From Acidobacteriota bacterium (lineage in GTDB: Bacteria > Acidobacteriota > UBA890 > WLXD01): a stretch of 64,000 bases of DNA. The DNA lies in contig CBDBHB010000008.1 of assembly GCA_965205505.1 (NCBI GenBank), forward strand, positions 1,056,001-1,120,000, read 5' to 3'. A program made the position numbers and the translations under genes. How positions within the stretch are numbered: the stretch's first letter is position 1; every line of letters starts with the position of its first letter. The notes beneath the pieces are model-generated. The model worked only from the letters and a program-made list of their open reading frames with translations. It searched no databases and was not told the DNA's origin. Of this stretch, positions 1,367 to 11,140 are shown one piece after another.

Positions 1367-2824
1367 ATGAGCGCCCTGATTTGTTCCAACAGAACTGTTC
1401 TCTCTCCCGGCCATCCGGTTCGCTGCTGGGCAACAGCAGTTTTGGCGGTTGTCCTGGCTGTGTCCTTGGGGGCGTGCTCGCGAGTCAGGCCCCACACCCA
1501 GCCTGACGCTTCGTCCCATCTGGAGACCATCTCCTTCGGCTCCTGCTGGCACGACGACACCGGGACCACCGGGCCGACAATCAGTCGCCTGGCCTCCCAG
1601 GATCCCGACCTGTTCTTGTGGCTCGGGGACAACGTCTACGCCGACACGACGGACATGGCCGAGATGCGCGACACCTACGACGCCAAGAAGAACGGCGCCA
1701 CCTATCGGCCTTTTCTTCAGGCGCGTATACCCGTGATGGCCACCTGGGACGATCACGATTTCGGTGAGAACAACGCCGGAGACAACTATTCCAGCCGCGC
1801 CGAAAGCCAATTGGAGTTCCTGCGCCATTTCGACGTGCCGACCGACGATGTCCGCTATGGCGTGCAAGACGGGGTCTACAACGCCACGTTGTTCGGGTCT
1901 GCAGCGCAGAGCAACCGGGTGAACGTGATCATGCTGGACGCCCGCTACCATCGCTCCCCGACCTTCCTCGAATACGGCGCCTGCCAGGGGGCCGTCTCCA
2001 CCATGCTGGGGAACGATCAGTGGTCGTGGCTAGAGCGACAGATGAGTGCGACCTCGGAGATCACTCTGATCGCCTCCGGCACGCAAGTGCTGCCGCCGCT
2101 CAACCGGGACAGAGCCCTGACGGACTATTGTGCGTACGGGGACGGTACGGAGTTCAACGCCGCCATCGCCAACCTCGACGAGACCAACGATTCGGGGACG
2201 GAGTACGAATCGTGGGCCGAGATGCCGGCAGAGCGGGAACGGTTGCTACGCCTGGCCCAGAAAGCCGTCAACACCGGCAAGACCAAGCTGGTGATTTTCG
2301 TCTCCGGGGATCAGCACTGGGGCGAGCTGCTGCAGAAGACGACGCCGCCCTCCGCCGCGGAGGGGCCGGCGGTGACTTTCTATGAAGTGACGGCGTCCGG
2401 GTTCGATCAGAACTTCCCAGAAGATGTGCCCAGCCCGAACCGCCTTCCGGTTTGGGCCGACACGCAGGGCAACGGAACGTACGACAACCGGTGCAAACTT
2501 CCGTTCAGCCATACGGGCACGACCTATGAAGGCTGCACCAGGGCAGACCGCACGGCGCCATGGTGCTACACGCAGTTGGACGCGAACGGGAACGGCGTCC
2601 CCGCCGCATGGGGCCATTGCGCGCCCGCCGGAGCGACGATTCCGACTGGTCAGGCAGGGGTGATCAGCAGCAACATTTCTGCCTACACAACGCAGGACCG
2701 ACACATCATCAACAAACCGGAATCGAAGTACGGCACCATCGAGATCGACTGGGTCACCAAGAAGGTGACCCTCAAGCTCGAAACCCCGACGGAGGTCGCC
2801 GTCTCGACGATCATTCCCTTCTAG
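1367..2824 (+). CDS. PhoD-family alkaline phosphatase, probable lipoprotein, with an FN2-like insert
   Basis: FGSC, WLGDNVYAD, TWDDHDFG, MLDARYHR, SGDQHW motifs; LGAC lipobox. Confidence 0.85.
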   Translation: MSALICSNRTVLSPGHPVRCWATAVLAVVLAVSLGACSRVRPHTQPDASSHLETISFGSCWHDDTGTTGPTISRLASQDPDLFLWLGDNVYADTTDMAEMRDTYDAKKNGATYRPFLQARIPVMATWDDHDFGENNAGDNYSSRAESQLEFLRHFDVPTDDVRYGVQDGVYNATLFGSAAQSNRVNVIMLDARYHRSPTFLEYGACQGAVSTMLGNDQWSWLERQMSATSEITLIASGTQVLPPLNRDRALTDYCAYGDGTEFNAAIANLDETNDSGTEYESWAEMPAERERLLRLAQKAVNTGKTKLVIFVSGDQHWGELLQKTTPPSAAEGPAVTFYEVTASGFDQNFPEDVPSPNRLPVWADTQGNGTYDNRCKLPFSHTGTTYEGCTRADRTAPWCYTQLDANGNGVPAAWGHCAPAGATIPTGQAGVISSNISAYTTQDRHIINKPESKYGTIEIDWVTKKVTLKLETPTEVAVSTIIPF

Positions 2825-2906: not shown

Positions 2907-3041
2907 GTGCTCGTACCGATGATGATCGCGCTGGTCACCGTCATCCTGGCCTTGGGGCTCGCCTTCGTGCTGGCTAAACGGGCGCGCCGGCAAGCCAGGG
3001 CCGTGCTCTCTGGTGAGCACGGCCCGTCGGAAGGCACCTGA
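2907..3041 (+). CDS. Putative 44-aa single-TM small protein
   Basis: MLVPMMIALVTVILALGLAFVLAKRARRQ...; GGGGA upstream; stop abuts a GTG at 3043 in the next gene's frame. Confidence 0.4.
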   Translation: MLVPMMIALVTVILALGLAFVLAKRARRQARAVLSGEHGPSEGT

Positions 3042-4659
3042 GGTGCGCGCCGTGGGAGATCTAGCTCCGAGCTTTGCGTTGTCGCGAGCCGGAGGAGAAC
3101 GCTGGAGCTCGGACAGCGAGACCGCTAGGGGCCCGGTACTGCTGGCGATTCTCGAGACCGACTGCCCGACCTGCAGGCTGGTCGTGCCGTACTTGAAGCG
3201 CCTCGACGAGACACTCGGCTCGAACCCCGGACGCGTCATCGCGATCTCCCAGGATCCGGAAGACGACACCCGGCAGATGGTCGAGAGTCTGCACATCGAG
3301 CTGCCGACGTTGCTCGATCGTGACCTCGAGGTGTCGCGTCTCTTCGAACTATCCAGCGTGCCCGCACTAATCCTCATAGGCACTGACGGACGTATCGAGT
3401 TCACCGGCATGGGATTCCACAAAGGCGACCTCAACGAGATCGCCGCCCGCATGCTCGTGGCGCTGAACCTCGAGCCCCAGACGATCGCCGAGCCGAACGA
3501 CGGCGCGCCGGAAAGCAAGCCCGGTTGCGCTTCACGGCATCTCGAGCCCCCGGTGGACATCACACTCGACCGTGCGGCTCCCATCGATCTACGCCCAGAG
3601 ACGGGAGCTCGCGCCACGCGCATCGCCGTCGACGACGATACCGATTTGTACGACTATTGCATGGAGGCTGGGTTCTCTCCGTGCCTTCCGGTTGTTCCGC
3701 CAACGGCCGCTCGGGTCGATCGCCTACTGGCAGCAACACCGCTGTCCCCCGACCAGGTGGTCGGCTTGATTCCGCCGTGCTACGGAGCGGCCACCGTCGA
3801 GAAGATCGCCGCCAACGCGGTGATGGCCGGTTGCCGGCCAGCGTACATGGAGGTACTGGTGCCGCTAGTACGCGCCGCCTGTGACGAGCGCTTCAACCTT
3901 CACGGCTTGCAGGCGACGACGCATTCGGCAACGCCGCTGACGATCATCAGTGGAGAAATCGTCAAGCGCCTCGGGTTCGGCAGCGGAGCGGGGCTGTTCG
4001 GCAATACCGCCCGAGCGAACAGTTCTGTCGGCCGCGCGTTTCAGCTGCTGATCGCAAATCTCGGAGGCGCGCTGCCGGGCGAGATCGATATGTCGACGCT
4101 CGGGAATCCGGGACAGTTCTCCTATTGCATCGCCGAAGATGAGGCCGCGAACCCGTGGGAGCCCCTGCACGTCGAGCTCGGGTTCGGACCGCAGGACAGC
4201 ACGATCACGCTGTTCGGAGCGGCCGGGATTCAAGAGGTCAGCGAGCATACGGCGCGGGCGGGCGCCTCGCTCCTGCGGACAATTGCCGCGGCGCTCGCGG
4301 TGGTCTGGAGCTGGCGTGTATGCGGACGGGTCGATGCGGTGCTGATCGTCTCTCCGGAACACGCCGCAACACTGGCGACCAATGGCTTCTCGAAAGCGAG
4401 CGCGCGCGAGTTCTTGTTCGAGCATACCGGTGTGCCGCTGCGGGCATTCGATCACGATGGCACGGAGGGAACGCAGATTCGCCACACCTACGAAGAGATC
4501 GTGATCGACGGCGAGCCGCACTACCGCAAGTTCAGCGACCCGAGCCAGATTCGAATCGTCGTCGCCGGCGGCACCGCCGGTAAGTTCTCCGCGGTGATCG
4601 GCGGCTGGCCGTCGGGCCCCGGCGGCACTCAGATCGTTACTTACCCGGTCGCGTGGTGA
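3013..4659 (+). CDS. Redoxin (AhpC/TlpA-like CxxC) domain fused to the uncharacterised domain commonly encoded beside UGSC proteins
   Basis: GDLAPSFAL...DCPTC...KPGC; C-terminal LPVVPPT...ATVEKIAANAVMAGC...QATT...GNPG; real start may be GTG 3043. Confidence 0.75.
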   Translation: MSTARRKAPEVRAVGDLAPSFALSRAGGERWSSDSETARGPVLLAILETDCPTCRLVVPYLKRLDETLGSNPGRVIAISQDPEDDTRQMVESLHIELPTLLDRDLEVSRLFELSSVPALILIGTDGRIEFTGMGFHKGDLNEIAARMLVALNLEPQTIAEPNDGAPESKPGCASRHLEPPVDITLDRAAPIDLRPETGARATRIAVDDDTDLYDYCMEAGFSPCLPVVPPTAARVDRLLAATPLSPDQVVGLIPPCYGAATVEKIAANAVMAGCRPAYMEVLVPLVRAACDERFNLHGLQATTHSATPLTIISGEIVKRLGFGSGAGLFGNTARANSSVGRAFQLLIANLGGALPGEIDMSTLGNPGQFSYCIAEDEAANPWEPLHVELGFGPQDSTITLFGAAGIQEVSEHTARAGASLLRTIAAALAVVWSWRVCGRVDAVLIVSPEHAATLATNGFSKASAREFLFEHTGVPLRAFDHDGTEGTQIRHTYEEIVIDGEPHYRKFSDPSQIRIVVAGGTAGKFSAVIGGWPSGPGGTQIVTYPVAW

Positions 4660-4693
4660 GACCATTCCCCGGCCATTTCATTGGAGCCCTGTC

Positions 4694-5230
4694 ATGTCAG
4701 AGATCCTGGTAAGTCCACTCGACGAGGCGGCACAAAGCCCTCAGGCGGCGGCGCCGCGTCTCGACCAGCTGAAGGGCAAGACGATCGCGCTCTTCGACAT
4801 CAGCAAGCGCGGCGGCAGCGTGCTTCTGGAGCGGTTGGAGCAGCTGCTGCGCGAACGCCACGGCGTGGTGGATTTCGTACGAGAGACCAAGCCAACCTAC
4901 ACGAAGCCCGCCCCGGAGGAGCTCCTGGAGCGACTCGGCCTTGCCGACGGAGTCATCGAGGCACTGGCCGACTGAGGGTCGTGCACAACGTGCAGTTTGC
5001 ACGACAGCGTCGCGCTCGAGAGCCGAGGTGTTCCCACGGTTCCCATCGTCACAGACGAGTTCCGAGTGGCCGCCCGCATCCAGGCGAGCCGGCTGGGGCG
5101 CCCCGATCTCGATGCGGTATTCGTACCCCATCCGATCCAGGATCAAACTGCAGAAGAGATCCAGGCACGGGCAGAAGCGGTGGTCGACGAGATCGTGGCT
5201 CGACTCACCGCCCCGGGCGTCGAGACCTGA
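4694..5230 (+). CDS. UGSC-family selenoprotein (Sec at TGA 4973-4975)
   Basis: ORFs 4694-4975 and 4997-5230 are in one frame, giving ALAD-U-GSCTTCSLHD...GVPTV; hairpin directly after the UGA. Confidence 0.85.
4978..5005 (+). promoter_or_regulatory. Candidate bacterial SECIS hairpin
   Basis: GTCGTGCA-C-AAC-GTGCA-GTT-TGCACGAC; perfect 8-bp outer stem starting 3 nt after the UGA. Confidence 0.6.
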
Positions 5231-6208
5231 TCACAAGCCCAGCAGCCGCCGCGCGTTGCCCCCGAGAAGCGCAGCACGGTCGGACTCCGAGACCTGCAGC
5301 GCAGCAATCGACGTTTTCATCTTCTCCAGGCTGCCGATCATGTGGGGATAGTCACTGCCGGCAACGACCTGGCCGGGTCCGGAGAATTCGATGGTCAGCT
5401 GCAGGCACGCCGGATCGAAGTTGACCGTGTCGTAGTAGAAGTCTTTCAGATACTCGCTTGGGAGCTTGCGCAGGTTCTCCCGGCAGCGGCGGAAGGCCTC
5501 GTAGCCGCGGTCGAGTCGTTCGGCAAGAAACGGGATTGCCCCGCCGTTGTGGCACAGCACCCAGCGGATGTTCGGGAACCTCTCCGGTACCCCGGCGAAG
5601 ACCAAATGCGCTGCCGCCAACGTGGTGTCGAAGAGGAATCCCACCAACGGCATGAGCATGAACTCTTCCATCGCCTCGACGCCGAGCGGGTATGTGGGGT
5701 GGATGTAAACGACGGCACCGCTGTCGTTGGCGCGCTCGTACAACGGCCAGAAGCGCTCATCCAACAACGCTACTCCGCTGGCGTTGCTGTAGAGCATCAC
5801 GCCCGGGAGCTCGAGTTGCTCGAGGAGGCGCTCGAGCTCTCGTGCGGCAGCATCAGGGTTGTTGAGCGGCAGGTGCCCCAGCGCTGCGAAACGATCGGGC
5901 TGCGCCGCCACGGCTTCGGCCAGTCCGTCGTTGATCACCGCCGCCAGCTCGGCGGCTCGCTGCGGCGACTCGATGCTGGTTCCGGGGGCAGTGAAGCTGA
6001 GCACCTGCTTGTCGACGCCGGCGTCATCGAGGACACGACGGCGATAGTCGATGTCGCGGTGGCCGAGCACGAGTACGTTGTAGTCGCCAGGCGAGTGCAA
6101 CACAGGGTTGCCGTGGTCGTCGGTGGTGATGCGGAAACTGCTGGGCCCGGCCTTGATCGCCTCGACATAGTCGGGTGGGAAGTAATGGTTGTGGAAGTCG
6201 ATGATCAT
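5231..6208 (-). CDS. Amidohydrolase-2 family protein (ACMSD/decarboxylase-like)
   Basis: MIIDFHNH, YIHP, HNGGAIPF, YYDT, GSDYPH motifs. Confidence 0.85.
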   Translation of the reverse strand: MIIDFHNHYFPPDYVEAIKAGPSSFRITTDDHGNPVLHSPGDYNVLVLGHRDIDYRRRVLDDAGVDKQVLSFTAPGTSIESPQRAAELAAVINDGLAEAVAAQPDRFAALGHLPLNNPDAAARELERLLEQLELPGVMLYSNASGVALLDERFWPLYERANDSGAVVYIHPTYPLGVEAMEEFMLMPLVGFLFDTTLAAAHLVFAGVPERFPNIRWVLCHNGGAIPFLAERLDRGYEAFRRCRENLRKLPSEYLKDFYYDTVNFDPACLQLTIEFSGPGQVVAGSDYPHMIGSLEKMKTSIAALQVSESDRAALLGGNARRLLGL

Positions 6209-7581
6209 GCGGATCTCGCTGAAGAAGACAGAGTTGTCCAGACCATATACACAGGCAGACCGGCCACGACGATGCCGAGCCCCGACAGGCTTCCGGCAGT
6301 ATCGTTGACGATGTGGTTGATGACGATGGCGAACGCGGCGAGCGCGAAGGCGATCGGTGTGAACGGATACCCGACGAGGCGATACGCGGGTAACGGCGCC
6401 GCAGATACTCGCAGCTTGATCAAGCCCAGCGCCATGACACCGAAGAATATCCACTCCGTGTAAACAACGCGCGTGAACAATGCTCGATACGTTCCCGTAA
6501 GCACCAGTGCCGACGACCACAACGCCTGCACGATGATGGCTCGATGAGGCGTGCGGAATCGCGAGTGCACCTTCCCGACCCAACCGAACAAGAGACCGTC
6601 CCGCGCCATCGCGTAGTAGACCCGCGGACCCGAAAGAACGATTCCAGAAAGGGCTCCGAAGGTCGAGAACAGCACCAGTGCGGTCATCGCCTTGCCGCCC
6701 CGGTCGCCGAGCACGGTGGCGGCTGCATCGGCTGCGATTCGCTGCGACTGGATCACCGTGTCGAGGGGTAGCAGGTAGAAATACATACCGTTGAGAGCGA
6801 TGTAGCAGGTAGTAACGACAGCCACGCCCCAGAAGAGAGCACGGGGAATCGTGGTGTGTGGCTCGATCGTCTCCTCGGCGTTGTAGCTCACCATGTGCCA
6901 GCCGCCGAAGGCGAACAGCGCCGCCGATACGGCGAGGGCAAAATCGGACAGACTGCCGCCGCCCAGGATCGCGAAGCCCTGAGCAGCAACTCCGCTCACG
7001 CCGGAATCGATCGCCGCGCCGGCGTCGACCGCGTCCTGCGATGCTGGTTGCCCCAACGCCAGCCCGACGATGACGATCAAGACGATCGCAGCCACTTTGA
7101 CCAGGGTAAACGCGGCCTGGAGATTGCTACCGTGCCGCACGCCGCGGTAGTTGACAGCCGACAACACCAGGATGGTCGCTACCGCCACCATCCGCGTCGA
7201 GGTGTCGTCGAGCGGCACGACGAAGCCCGCGTAGGAAGCGAACACCATGGCCAGGGCAGCAATGATCCCGGAGTGCATGACCCAGAACATCGCCCAGCCC
7301 CAGAGAAAGCCGAGCCAGTCACCAAATTGCCTGCGCAGGTAGACGTAGACTCCCCCGCTCGCCGGCATCGAAGATGCCAACTCGGCGATGACCAAAGCGC
7401 CGAACATGGTGAGCACGCCGGCGGTCAGCCAGACCAGCGCCGCGCCGGCCATCGACGGCACCTGCCCGATGACCTCGGATGGCTGTACGAAGATCGAGGC
7501 ACCGATGATCGTGCCGACAACCATGGCAATGGCGTGTCGCAGCCCGATGGCGCGATGGAGCCCTGTCCCTGGCGCGCTCAT
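6205..7581 (-). CDS. APC-family amino acid permease
   Basis: VGTIIGASIF, AELASSMPASGGVYVYL, FAFGGW, HSRFRTPH; many TM helices. Confidence 0.9.
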   Translation of the reverse strand: MSAPGTGLHRAIGLRHAIAMVVGTIIGASIFVQPSEVIGQVPSMAGAALVWLTAGVLTMFGALVIAELASSMPASGGVYVYLRRQFGDWLGFLWGWAMFWVMHSGIIAALAMVFASYAGFVVPLDDTSTRMVAVATILVLSAVNYRGVRHGSNLQAAFTLVKVAAIVLIVIVGLALGQPASQDAVDAGAAIDSGVSGVAAQGFAILGGGSLSDFALAVSAALFAFGGWHMVSYNAEETIEPHTTIPRALFWGVAVVTTCYIALNGMYFYLLPLDTVIQSQRIAADAAATVLGDRGGKAMTALVLFSTFGALSGIVLSGPRVYYAMARDGLLFGWVGKVHSRFRTPHRAIIVQALWSSALVLTGTYRALFTRVVYTEWIFFGVMALGLIKLRVSAAPLPAYRLVGYPFTPIAFALAAFAIVINHIVNDTAGSLSGLGIVVAGLPVYMVWTTLSSSARSA

Positions 7582-7932
7582 CCCAACTCTCGTAGCGTAT
7601 CCATCAGTCGGTCTCGTCGGAAAAGCCAATGCGGGCGTTGTTGAGGAACGCGATGCGTGTTCCGATCGCGAACACTATTCTGAATTGGCCCGAAGGCGCT
7701 AGCTGACCTCGCGCTTCACCCTGATTCGACAGCTCCGGCAGGCGCGACGCGTTTGGCTCCGACGACTGGCTGAGTAATCAGCACTACAGGTACTCGCGCT
7801 TCGGAGGTCACGCGTTTGTTGCCGATTTCGAGTTAACTTGACAGTATCTCGATCGGGATTGAACGTCGGGCGAGCGCTTGATGCTGCCCGACAAGACCGC
7901 ACTCACAACAACTCTCAAGAGAGGCTCGCATC

Positions 7933-8886
7933 ATGCAGATCATCAGTGCCGACCAGGTACATGCCGCACTCAGCTATCCCGAATTGGTCGACGCTTTGCA
8001 CGACGCTTTCGGCAAGGACTACAACCAGCCGCCGCGCCAGGTGTTCTTGCTCGATGACGCCGACGACAACTTCGACGCCTTTGCGCTGCTGCCCGCCTGG
8101 AACGACAAGATCATTGCCGTCAAGGCGTTCACCTATTTCCCGAGCAACTCACCGCCGCACGATCTTCTCTACTCCAAGATCATGATCTTCGACCGGCCCC
8201 ACGGCGTGCCCTTGGCGCTCGTGGACGGCGCTACGTGCACCTTCTGGCGCACAGGCGGCGTTTCGGGCTTGGCCACACGTCTGCTGAGCCGCGAGGACTC
8301 GTCCACCATGTTGCTGTTGGGCACGGGCAACCTGTCCACTTACATGATCCGAGCCAATGCCGCGGTGCGCCCCCTCGCGAAAATCATGGTCTGGGGAAAC
8401 CCCGATGGCATGCCCCCAGTGGCCGACGCCGAAGCTCTCGTCTCACGAGCGTCGGAAGAACTACCCGACATCGAATTCTCGGTAGTTACAGACCTCGAGA
8501 CCGCCTGCGGCGAAGCCGATATCATCGTTAGCGCCACCTCTTCTCCCGACATCTTGGTCAGAGGTGCCTGGATCAAAGAGGGCACGCACCTCGACTTCAT
8601 CGGCAACCACCACGCCGACAAGCGGGAATGTGACACCGAAACGATCACCAAGAGCCGCGTCTACGTGGACAGCTACGTCAACGCCTTCAAGGAAGCCGGT
8701 GAGATTCTGGTGCCTATCCAAGAGGGAGTGTTCACGAAGGAAGACGTTGTCGCCGAGCTGTCCGAGATGTGTTCGGGCACGGCCACGTTACGAACCGATG
8801 ACAAAGAGATCACCGTGTTCAAAGCCATTGGCCAGGCATTGACCGACCTGGTGGCTGCGAGCATGGCGCACTCGGCGTCGGAGTAG
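7933..8886 (+). CDS. Ornithine cyclodeaminase/mu-crystallin family protein (pyrroline-2-carboxylate reductase-like)
   Basis: ALLPAW, VKAFTYFP, TFWRT, LLGTGNL, KEAGEI, ITVFKAIG. Confidence 0.85.
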   Translation: MQIISADQVHAALSYPELVDALHDAFGKDYNQPPRQVFLLDDADDNFDAFALLPAWNDKIIAVKAFTYFPSNSPPHDLLYSKIMIFDRPHGVPLALVDGATCTFWRTGGVSGLATRLLSREDSSTMLLLGTGNLSTYMIRANAAVRPLAKIMVWGNPDGMPPVADAEALVSRASEELPDIEFSVVTDLETACGEADIIVSATSSPDILVRGAWIKEGTHLDFIGNHHADKRECDTETITKSRVYVDSYVNAFKEAGEILVPIQEGVFTKEDVVAELSEMCSGTATLRTDDKEITVFKAIGQALTDLVAASMAHSASE

Positions 8887-8974
8887 AGTCCGAAGCAGAC
8901 TCGAGCGTGCGCGTCTGACACTCGCTCCGTTGGGTCGGCTCGTGTGAAACCTCTGCTCGGTTGTTCCTGAAGCG

Positions 8975-9049
8975 CTCCTCGGCGCAGACGGGATGGGCCA
9001 GGTGTACCGAGCCCGCGATACGACGCTGGATCGTGATGTCGCCATCAAG
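8975..9049 (+). pseudogene. Ser/Thr protein kinase N-lobe fragment
   Basis: Reads LLGADGMGQVYRARDTTLDRDVAIK (Gly loop and VAIK). Confidence 0.8.
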
Positions 9050-9077
9050 GGGCTCCGACGTCTTGCCGGGGCCACGG

Positions 9078-10877
9078 TCAGGGGTGAATGACGCTTCCCT
9101 CCTCAGCACCCATGTAGTTGGCCGCCGGAGTGTGCAGCATGTACGAATAAACGATTTCTCCGGCCGGGATGTGTGGCCGCTGGTCCGCCTGCCACGGCAG
9201 AACGGTGCGTAGGCCGGCCAGGGCGTCCTCCGCGGCCCGACCGAACGAACGGGCCGGGTTCTCCGCTTTGCGGACCTCGACCCAGTAGCTCGCCGAGAGC
9301 ATCTCCTCCGCGGTGATTCGGAGGGCGATATCCACGGCCTGTCGAGCCCGCGCTACACGTTGGCGAGTGTACGACTCCATGTCCTCGACATTTCGGACGA
9401 GGCTGAGGCCTTGCGCCGGTATTGGGTTCGTAAGAGTTTGGATCTCGGCCATCAGGTCCGAGATCGACCAGCTCGAGCCCCGCGAAGGTGCCTTGGCGCG
9501 CACTTCCGCGGAGAGCACATCGGCGGGCGCAATCACAGTGAAAAACGTGTCCGGGAAGCGCATGACACGCTGCACCGAGCTGGCCATACTCTCCGCCAGG
9601 GCCATCGAGAACGCCTGCAAGTCGTTAGCCATGGGCTGGGCCACGAAGTTCGCGTTCGAGAGGATGTAGCCGCCTTTGTCCGAGTACGGCCCGGGCTCCA
9701 CGTAGTAGCGTCTTAGCCAGGGGGTGTCGAGCTCCCACGAGTCGCTCGGTGCGGCGCCGGGCACCACGGCCGGGTTGTGGTCGGACGAGTTGATTTGGAT
9801 CAGGACGGTGCGCTTGAGCCGATCGTAGGCCTCCCATAGCGCGCCGCTTCGCTGGCTGTAGTCGCGAAAACTGAGCGGGTCCTGGATGATCCGGCCGCCG
9901 TCTTCCTCGTAGTCGAACAGGTAACTGCCGCGTATGAGATTCAGCAGGCGACGTGCCTGCATGTTCTGGAACGGGAAAGGCCTTGCCTTCTGTGGCACGG
10001 CGGTCAGCGGCGTGATGCTCGAGTTGAGGCCGAGCATGCTGGTTGCGAAGGTCAGCTCCGACCAGTCGAGCATGCGCTTGGCCTCATGGAGTAGGAGCGC
10101 GGCCTGGCCGGCCGAATAGGCGTTCGAGCTGGTGAGGGCCGCATTGTCGGCGGCGAAGGGCTCGAGCTCGTCCAGACCGGCCCTCTCCAGGGCCTCTGCC
10201 GCCGTCATGGGCTCACCCTTCCAGTACGCGTCGCCGACGCCAACCATCGTCCCGCCGACGTTGGACATCATCGGCAGGTCACCCTCGCCCGGCGAGCCAC
10301 GCGACCAGACGACAGGCGTGACCCGCTCATTGATCAGGTCGATGAGCATCTGCGTGAGACCTGGCGAGGCCGACTCGTAAACCATGGTGTTGGCGCGAAC
10401 GACCATCATCGCCCGCACGATTTCCTCTTCCCCGACCACCGGGCCGACCCCCGACCGCGCACCACGCCGGAAGCTGGCGAGCTGCCGATCTTTGAGCAGC
10501 TGCTCATTGTCGGGCCGGAGCGCGTCCCCCTCGAAGATGACCGTTTCGCGCCCTGAACCAGCGCCACGATTGAAGAAGTAGATGGGGATGTTTTGGCGCG
10601 TGCCCTCGAGCAGGAGGTTGTAGGCGTCGAGCGAGCGCTGACGTGCCGCCGTGCCGTACTCCACCTTCGCCCCGCGGCGCGCTACCGCAACGACCTCGTC
10701 GATCGTGAGGTCCTTGCCGGTGAGGATGATCGTCGTACCTGTGTCGGACGGGTTGATTGGGCTCATCGCCGCCGCTCGAGTGGCGACGGTCGGGGGCGCG
10801 GACGCTTGAGTGGCGACGGCCGCGGTCGCGATCGCCAGCGTCGCTACGAGCCCGCCCAACAGACTGTGTGGCTTCAT
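9078..10877 (-). CDS. Aromatic amino acid lyase (HAL/PAL) superfamily protein with signal peptide; MIO motif replaced
   Basis: LTGKDLTIDEVVAVAR, VRAMMVVRANT, GSPGEGDL, QDPLSFR, QINSSDHNP, NVEDM. Confidence 0.8.
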   Translation of the reverse strand: MKPHSLLGGLVATLAIATAAVATQASAPPTVATRAAAMSPINPSDTGTTIILTGKDLTIDEVVAVARRGAKVEYGTAARQRSLDAYNLLLEGTRQNIPIYFFNRGAGSGRETVIFEGDALRPDNEQLLKDRQLASFRRGARSGVGPVVGEEEIVRAMMVVRANTMVYESASPGLTQMLIDLINERVTPVVWSRGSPGEGDLPMMSNVGGTMVGVGDAYWKGEPMTAAEALERAGLDELEPFAADNAALTSSNAYSAGQAALLLHEAKRMLDWSELTFATSMLGLNSSITPLTAVPQKARPFPFQNMQARRLLNLIRGSYLFDYEEDGGRIIQDPLSFRDYSQRSGALWEAYDRLKRTVLIQINSSDHNPAVVPGAAPSDSWELDTPWLRRYYVEPGPYSDKGGYILSNANFVAQPMANDLQAFSMALAESMASSVQRVMRFPDTFFTVIAPADVLSAEVRAKAPSRGSSWSISDLMAEIQTLTNPIPAQGLSLVRNVEDMESYTRQRVARARQAVDIALRITAEEMLSASYWVEVRKAENPARSFGRAAEDALAGLRTVLPWQADQRPHIPAGEIVYSYMLHTPAANYMGAEEGSVIHP

Positions 10878-10924
10878 CGCACGTATCCTCGCCTGGTGAA
10901 GTTGCAGAGCCTGACAGCTGACGC

Positions 10925-11140
10925 CGCGGCTTTTTCGGTGGCGGTCAGCGGCGGACCGTCGCAACGTTGACCCAGCTCGACCACGGGCCGGAGAGGCATG
11001 GGTGGCCTCAGCTTCTACCTGGCGGAGAGGCGTTGCTGTTTACCGCCGAGCAGGAGGGCGATGATACCAGCACTGGGGTACTTGATCCAAAGAATGGGAA
11101 TCGGAAGGTGGTGATGCGGGGCGCATCTCACGGACGCTAG
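10925..11140 (+). pseudogene. Fragment of the TolB-like propeller of a Ser/Thr kinase-TolB protein
   Basis: LTQLDHGPERHGWPQLLPGGEALLFT...VLDPKNGNRKVVMRGA resembles the HRWPQxLPGGxAxLFT repeat. Confidence 0.55.

Follow-up and report, generated by a model that had tools for sequence, protein, structure and literature searches.

Does the TGA triplet at position 4973 of the window (the whole stretch of 64,000 nucleotides of Acidobacteriota DNA analyzed here) terminate a small gene, or does it encode a selenocysteine (Sec) within a larger one, and what could the product of such a gene do? Taken together, the data make it very probable that positions 4694-5230 constitute one gene for a selenoprotein of the UGSC family, that its UGA codon is decoded by SelB by means of a hairpin at 4989-5003, and that the product would form a redox module based on selenium–sulfur (Se–S) chemistry with the protein encoded directly upstream. 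Matters of observation in this interpretation are the structure of the gene, its family affiliation, the Sec machinery of the genome, the conservation of the TGA and of the hairpin, and the linkage or fusion to upC, as we call the C-terminal domain of the upstream protein.

The gene begins with ATG at 4694, ends with TGA at 5228-5230 and contains between them a single in-frame TGA at 4973-4975. Translated with this codon as Sec, it yields 178 residues with U94 in the sequence ALAD-U-GSCTTCSLHD, exactly as the initial annotation had proposed by joining two open reading frames (ORFs) of the same frame. That annotation also foresaw that the gene would be missed. Ordinary gene callers split it because Sec is written as a stop codon, and an ORF listing under genetic code table 11 indeed gives two ORFs, 4694..4975 (93 amino acids, aa) and the TTG-started 4997..5230 (77 aa). 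The joined product matches the Pfam family PF24696 with 173.2 bits against a cut-off of 25, aligning residues 6-172 to positions 3-171 of the 172-position model, and the NCBIfam model NF041046, 'UGSC family (seleno)protein', with 154.2 bits (cut-off 125; residues 28-172 on positions 2-147 of 147). Both curated models place it, over its full length, in the UGSC family, as initially suggested, and the clusters returned by a protein atlas belonged to the same unnamed family and to no other. The selenoprotein was hidden to naive ORF callers, but not to curated annotation, since NCBIfam has an equivalog model of precisely this (seleno)protein, the cut-off of which the product exceeds. The gene is the sole UGSC copy in its genome, and inspection by eye revealed no obvious hydrophobic signal sequence at the start of either the UGSC protein or the upstream protein.

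All components required to decode UGA as Sec, which the initial annotation had recommended looking for, are encoded in the genome (5.98 Mb in nine contigs, 96% complete). SelA (516.6 bits, at two equal-scoring places on contig 6), SelB (354.6 bits), SelD (322.8 bits) and tRNA-Sec (68.2 bits; anticodon TCA according to ARAGORN) each exceed the respective curated cut-off. As a side observation, the two selA copies, C6:10376-11734 on the plus and C6:191379-192737 on the minus strand, have identical scores of 516.6 bits and lie in opposite orientation on the same contig, so that they may represent an inverted duplication or an assembly repeat.

The TGA itself is conserved far beyond this genome. 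A first survey covered 41 genomes (the own genome and others of its genus, family and order as well as a sample of the phylum) and found UGSC matches in seven of them, each with exactly one in-frame TGA, including all four genomes of the same genus. In a second survey of 401 genomes of the phylum, 44 contained UGSC matches; among the 89 matches listed, 83 had one TGA, one had two and five had none. Separately, we noted that genome G197 (locus L073; G and L numbers denote genomes and loci) has a UGSC match with two in-frame TGA, preceded by a redoxin-upC ORF of only 418 aa. For a set of 31 fetched loci from many genera, the own locus included, the Sec column contains TGA in 30; the exception, L031, has TGC (Cys) within the sequence CGSCCSCC. 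The expectation that homologs should have either Sec or Cys at this site was thus confirmed. In the protein alignment of 26 of these sequences D93, U/C94, G95, S96 and C97 are invariant, H103 is nearly so, and C100 is retained in at least 90%. Moreover, a comparison with seven orthologs over 78 codons, starting with the TGA, shows differences mainly at third codon positions (at positions 1/2/3, 1/1/10 for L024, 4/5/32 for L025 and 7/12/32 for L026). Because the TGA is conserved, the machinery is present and substitutions are biased toward third positions, a pseudogene, a sequencing error and two independent small ORFs can be excluded. The same three lines of evidence all favor the Sec identity of TGA 4973 claimed at the outset, and on the basis of conservation and machinery the codon is predicted to be read as Sec. 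The stretch 4694-5230 is a genuine Sec gene of the UGSC family and should be annotated as one selenoprotein gene of 178 codons, with 4973 marked as a translation exception, instead of two small ORFs.

Decoding of UGA as Sec in bacteria involves a selenocysteine insertion sequence (SECIS). The 45 nt starting with the TGA were aligned for the 30 Sec-form genes, which comprise 27 distinct sequences. They share a 6-bp hairpin with arms at positions 17-22 and 26-31, which reads CGUGCA-GUU-UGCACG in the window and has the loop G23-U24-N25. Among the 162 cells of the distinct sequences 99.4% are paired, and two pairs are doubly changed in L037 (G-C to A-U and C-G to G-C). The pairing or covariation score was reached by only one of 500 shuffles, and slid controls did not exceed 66.7%. 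Codon usage across the hairpin is similarly constant: in the 30 Sec-form rows the serine of the loop is encoded by AGT in 28, NCG, TGC and NTG each occur in 29, and the histidine codon is CAC in 27 and CAT, forming a G-U wobble, in three. The lone Cys-form, L031, uses unrelated codons and lacks the hairpin. As judged from sequence conservation, the SECIS is this inner 6-bp hairpin at 4989-5003 and not the 8-bp stem discussed below. In analogy to canonical Sec insertion in bacteria, SelB carrying GTP and Sec-tRNA(UCA) would bind the hairpin and decode the UGA at 4973, and the terminal TGA at 5228, which is not followed by such a hairpin, would terminate translation.

A control scan of the whole 5.98 Mb for a TGA followed by a stem in the exact 17-22/26-31 register, with a loop starting G-U, returned 55 places, at 16 of which the frames are open on both sides. 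Five of these 16 lie in known selenoprotein families, namely the UGSC gene and four others, each with one in-frame TGA followed by the hairpin (Table 1). The two formate-dehydrogenase-type, the AhpD-like and the OsmC-like ORFs are likely selenoproteins that gene calling under table 11 would split, and the genome contains, besides the UGSC gene, at least four more that are interrupted by UGA in this way.

The gene upstream of the UGSC gene offers a lead on its function. It encodes an N-terminal redoxin domain of the AhpC-TSA type with a CPTC motif, followed by the upC domain of about 400 aa, for which no match was obtained in Pfam, even at an E-value of 10, or in a sequence search of the PDB. 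According to tblastn searches of flanks of approximately 1.5 kb, upC lies beside UGSC in 18 of the 30 other loci. In L037 the two are combined in one frame of 552 residues with UGSC first, and in loci L074-L076 of another lineage an upC-like domain continues the frame of a UGSC-like domain that has the motif GH-U-SSC. The lineage concerned (G224, G287, G296, and G393; L074-L077) has eight UGSC-like matches per genome, and in L077 neighboring UGSC-like copies have neither Sec nor Cys at the site. A search of a large protein collection for longer UGSC relatives retrieved six fused Cys-forms of 407-586 aa that carry PF24696, and no GrdB-like protein.

The motif of upC agrees with that of a domain named 'Unknown_1', which the text of Fig. 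S1A in a metagenome survey gives as AVNAVMAGCxPEYMPV...ATT...VVNGP (PMC2398784). That survey states that some UGSC proteins are fused to this conserved domain; because the two motifs are the same, the UGSC-upC fusion has already been noted in print. For the three-part arrangement of UGSC, Unknown_1 and redoxin, no description was found in the accessible portions of the literature. The combination of redoxin and upC is common: among 8000 scored candidates there were 5442 matches at E-values up to 0.001, and among the best 120 of these most contained redoxin Pfam domains and redoxin-upC was the most frequent architecture. The names of these proteins in their sources, peroxiredoxin or TlpA-family reductase, take only the N-terminal domain into account. 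Residues invariant in 26 upC sequences include LPVxPP, C134, N155, ATT (161-163), RAN (194-196), C232-x-AE, H246 and E309-H310. In L028 (G002) the upC match falls into two pieces that meet at 2410-2412, which suggests a frameshift or a sequence error.

The AlphaFold2 model of the UGSC protein, computed from the 26-sequence alignment, has a predicted local distance difference test (pLDDT) value of 91.8 and a predicted template modeling (pTM) score of 0.87. It shows a parallel beta-alpha-beta domain with strands 30-35, 60-65, 86-92, 115-120 and 142-144, in which U94 is located between strand 86-92 and helix 95-110. The N-terminus of a helix is the usual place of a redox-active CxxC or UxxC pair. 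Foldseek and VIA-align comparisons of the model gave generic flavodoxin-, receiver-, TIR- and Rossmann-like matches (best 8s7v_H with Z 11.7, root-mean-square deviation 3.6 and 136 aligned residues; many rows at Z 9-10), so that no specific structural relative could be accepted. Neither list contains a thioredoxin (Trx) among its 50 best rows, although this does not prove a difference; the fold is predicted to be flavodoxin-like alpha/beta, and a Trx-like fold finds no support in the model. Sequence searches of the PDB with the protein and its profile retrieved chance-level matches only (putidaredoxin, ATP synthase gamma). For upC (pLDDT 82.2), class-I fumarate hydratase and cyanuric-acid-hydrolase folds were considered as relatives and rejected (Z <=5.2, TM <=0.26).

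The functional part of our interpretation, namely the Se–S cycle, the direction of electron flow and the physical contact of the two proteins, is inferred from the motif, from the structural model and from the partner protein. Sec94 would be a redox-active nucleophile that cycles between the selenol and an Se–S bond with Cys97. The UGSC protein might then act as the small selenium-bearing subunit serving upC in a two-gene module, whose catalytic or substrate-binding body could be the upC domain, and the Se–S bond would be re-reduced by the CPTC redoxin domain of the same upstream protein.

Several points weigh against this interpretation. Both the incorporation of selenium at UGA 4973 and the expression of the gene are predictions from sequence, and the Se–S cycle and the role of upC are deduced rather than observed. 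The local fold at the TGA is no more stable than that of shuffled sequences (-24.9 kcal/mol for a 66-nt stretch vs. -23.85 +/- 2.97 kcal/mol, z = -0.35). By stability alone, the 8-bp inverted repeat present here is within chance for GC-rich DNA, and the signal lies in the conservation. A scan of positions 4600-5300 against Rfam, with E-values up to 10, yielded no match to the hairpin. Both compensatory pairs stem from a single sequence, L037, in which the protein motif differs as well (UGSCSSWC), and the nucleotide conservation at the hairpin is in part a coding constraint, the protein motif being conserved too. In the window, moreover, the 8-bp pairing has the lower energy (-15.0 vs. -7.4 kcal/mol for the 6-bp hairpin alone). 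As for the partner, upC was not found within flanks of approximately 1.5 kb in 12 of the 30 other loci, the fused forms have Ala instead of its Cys134, and it has no recognizable fold relative (best VIA Z 5.2, Foldseek TM <=0.26).

Among the alternatives, a different chemistry for the module deserves the most attention. The UGSC protein might be a miniature relative of selenoprotein B of the glycine, sarcosine, betaine and D-proline reductases, the Sec of which would attack a substrate bound by upC and cleave a carbon-heteroatom bond reductively, with the redoxin reducing the resulting Se–S bond. The protein encoded in the window matches the GrdB model TIGR01917 with an E-value of 0.002, its residues 74-163 aligning to positions 329-413 of the 431 in the model, and, weakly, also GrdF and TIGR01918. 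When 26 UGSC members were scanned one by one, GrdB was matched by 19, GrdF by 18, TIGR01918 by 10, GrdH by seven and PrdB by five, with best E-values of 1e-4 to 5e-2 (GrdB best 1.8e-4) and always over the Sec region, and no other family was matched by more than two of the 26. In addition, a 2026 review gives UxxCxxC as the Sec motif of GrdB (PMC13188914), a pattern to which U94-xx-C97-xx-C100 conforms. The genes near the UGSC gene in the window (amidohydrolase, amino-acid permease, ornithine cyclodeaminase, aromatic amino-acid lyase) point to amino-acid or peptide metabolism, and proline-specific and other peptidases occur near five of 16 distant loci. However, the scores are far under the curated cut-offs (17.1 vs. 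602.2 bits for TIGR01917 and 12.9 vs. 65.45 bits for TIGR01918), and the UGSC protein is not a member of the GrdB/PrdB families (TIGR01917, TIGR01918, TIGR04483). The models of Pfam itself, run on the same 26 sequences at E-values up to 1, matched nothing but UGSC, and Pfam scans of the window ORFs between 416 and 14823 and of 123 ORFs from the 16 distant loci, chosen by heuristic ORF picking, contained no family of the GrdA, GrdE or PrdA type. Beyond upC, furthermore, the neighborhoods are not conserved. We therefore consider such a relationship unlikely.

A broader version of this idea, which we regard as rather doubtful, would see in UGSC, Unknown_1 (upC) and the CxxC redoxin a widespread, uncharacterized selenoenzyme of three modules, with a Sec subunit of selenoprotein B stock, which would reductively cleave a carbon-heteroatom bond in a substrate derived from an amino acid, outside the Stickland context of clostridia. 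Its modules are encoded by separate genes in the window, fused elsewhere, and present in up to eight paralogs per genome in one lineage. The conserved pairing of redoxin and Unknown_1, the fusions and the faint GrdB-like signal provide handles on the function of UGSC, as leads and not as results.

Another question is which structure SelB would recognize. The initial annotation had assigned the SECIS role to a perfect 8-bp stem, and this inverted repeat, GTCGTGCA (4978-4985) and TGCACGAC (4998-5005), is present and begins 3 nt downstream of the TGA as described. The stem, which encloses a 12-nt top, represents the minimum-free-energy fold in the window (-15.0 kcal/mol), is retained in the closest relatives L024 and L028, and has an apical loop, GUGCA, that likewise starts with G-U. 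Nevertheless, it is improbable that it takes the place of the inner hairpin, as the conserved element is the latter. Across the 27 distinct Sec-forms only 75.8% of the cells of the 8-bp stem are paired (vs. 99.4%), with single pairs broken in 8, 10, 13 or 18 sequences, and a whole clade has AGC TGC T in place of its 5' arm (codons GGG TCG TGC A). The four other selenoprotein genes of the genome and E. coli fdhF also have the register of the inner hairpin, not that of the 8-bp stem. Within the genus both pairings are possible, and the best fold that retains the 6-bp hairpin has -15.8 kcal/mol.

It is very improbable that the UGA at 4973 is read through without Sec, be it by a near-cognate tRNA for Trp or Cys or under a reassigned code. 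The Cys-form relative demonstrates that Cys is tolerated at the site, but 26 of the 31 homologous genes end with TGA, which therefore acts as a stop there; the genome also encodes SelA, SelB, SelD and a dedicated tRNA-Sec, and the SelB-type hairpin is conserved in the TGA forms only. Least credible of all is a true stop at 4973, caused by a nonsense mutation or a sequencing error and leaving two small proteins (93 and 77 aa) or a dead gene: table 11 calls exactly these two ORFs and the terminal stop of the gene is likewise TGA, but 30 of 31 loci, which span many genera, have the triplet in this column, the residues GSCTTCS between it and TTG 4997 are the most conserved of the protein, and third-position bias after the TGA and a complete Sec machinery speak for translation. 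A pseudogene, two separate ORFs and a reassigned code were accordingly rejected on TGA conservation, third-position bias, Sec machinery and the hairpin.

Downstream, the stop codons of the UGSC gene and of a convergent amidohydrolase_2 gene stand back to back (5228-5233), a neighbor common to the four same-genus loci only. The region 5231-10964 contains, in order, this gene (minus strand), an amino-acid permease (minus), an ornithine cyclodeaminase/mu-crystallin (plus) and an aromatic amino-acid lyase (minus), and resembles a gene cluster for amino-acid catabolism that adjoins the selenoprotein gene; the first three also occur in the same-genus locus L072. In the wider context of the 16 distant loci, whose 123 ORFs were chosen with a simple heuristic, nothing besides the upC gene recurs generally. 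Peptidases lie within approximately 4 kb in five of the 16 (two S15 X-Pro and one DPP-IV, plus S46, M28 and M20). Three genomes of one family have a LarA-like gene, with N- and C-terminal lactate racemase domains, just 3' of UGSC. Farther upstream in the window, a PhoD-like phosphatase ORF (1367-2824, plus strand) matches the fibronectin type II domain PF00040 with 27 bits (cut-off 22.2), a domain that is rarely reported in bacteria.

Table 1. Features of the UGSC locus, with related genes of the same genome (contigs C7 and C9) and of other loci (L numbers). Positions without prefix refer to the window.
Feature	Position	Strand	Remarks
UGSC-family selenoprotein gene	4694..5230	+	One frame, 178 codons plus terminal TGA
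GGAG, likely ribosome-binding site	4683..4686	+	7 nt 5' of ATG 4694; from the sequence directly
In-frame TGA, predicted Sec (U94)	4973..4975	+	Aligned column: TGA in 30 of the 31 loci, TGC (Cys) in the remaining one
U-G-S-C-T-T-C motif (U94, C97, C100)	4973..4993	+	UxxCxxC pattern; from translation and 26-sequence alignment
Conserved apical hairpin, predicted SECIS	4989..5003	+	Arms 4989-4994/4998-5003, loop G-U-U 4995-4997; positions 17-31 from the U of UGA
8-bp stem	4978..5005	+	Arms 4978-4985/4998-5005; alternative pairing with the same 3' arm
Upstream partner gene	3013..4659	+	Redoxin and upC domains; ends 34 nt before the UGSC start
Redoxin/AhpC-TSA domain, N-terminal in upstream gene	CPTC at 3163-3174		CPTC = residues 51-54; Pfam 53 and 49 bits
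upC domain, C-terminal part of upstream gene	3433-4656	+	~400 aa; 'Unknown_1' of the 2008 paper by motif match
Amidohydrolase_2	5231-6583	-	Convergent with the UGSC gene
Formate-dehydrogenase-type molybdopterin oxidoreductase	C9:1541200-1544106	+	One in-frame TGA, then same-register hairpin
Formate-dehydrogenase-type molybdopterin oxidoreductase	C9:1517183-1520194	-	One in-frame TGA, then same-register hairpin
AhpD-like/carboxymuconolactone-decarboxylase protein	Listed among C9:608664-609326, C7:304136-304840	+	C-G-Y-U; one in-frame TGA, same-register hairpin
OsmC-like protein	Listed among C9:608664-609326, C7:304136-304840	+	One in-frame TGA, same-register hairpin
LarA-like gene	L066 8680-9984
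LarA-like gene	L067 8405-9775
LarA-like gene	L068 10124-11389

How does the locus compare with known systems? The SECIS of E. coli fdhF (NC_000913) reads UGCA-GGUC-UGCACC. In both fdhF and the UGSC gene G23 and U24 are looped and U26-C30 form the 3' arm, whereas the loop has four nucleotides (GGUC) in fdhF and three (GUU) in the UGSC gene. We take G23 and U24 to be the SelB contacts in fdhF. The lower stems differ, and for the U17 that is presumably bulged in the fdhF element no counterpart was identified in the UGSC gene.

GrdB, GrdF, GrdH and PrdB share with UGSC the UxxCxxC pattern around Sec and the weak but recurrent matches over this region. They differ in size, their models having approximately 430 positions vs. 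the 178 aa of the UGSC protein, and the scores lie far under the cut-offs. In the accessible portions of the literature no statement on a link between UGSC and GrdB was found, and the papers found there list the two families separately.

Within the UGSC family (NF041046/PF24696), the product of 4694-5230 has no feature that separates it from the rest, and shares with it the Sec in the UGSC motif and the predominance of Sec-forms over few Cys-forms. The find is correct, yet already known, as a curated model for the family exists. Descriptions of UGSC-containing selenoproteins and of the domain fused to them date back to 2007-2008 (Zhang and Gladyshev, 2007/2008) and leave the function uncharacterized. 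According to the 2008 survey of Global Ocean Sampling (GOS) metagenomes, UGSC ranks among the most abundant selenoprotein families of these aquatic samples, with 255 Sec-forms vs. 21 Cys-forms in Table 2, is a major family that is more common in non-marine samples, and has a 'likely' Trx-like fold (PMC2398784), in contrast to the flavodoxin/Rossmann-like model obtained here. Reviews of 2022 and 2026 list the family as well, and the latter, which cites NF041046, describes the functions of such families as largely uncharacterized. What the present analysis adds to this knowledge is the corrected assignment of the SECIS and leads on the partner of the family. With respect to 'Unknown_1', the UGSC-first order of the fusion in the published figure (PMC2398784) recurs in L037 and L074-L076, whereas in the window the domain is encoded by a separate upstream gene and carries an N-terminal CPTC redoxin domain.

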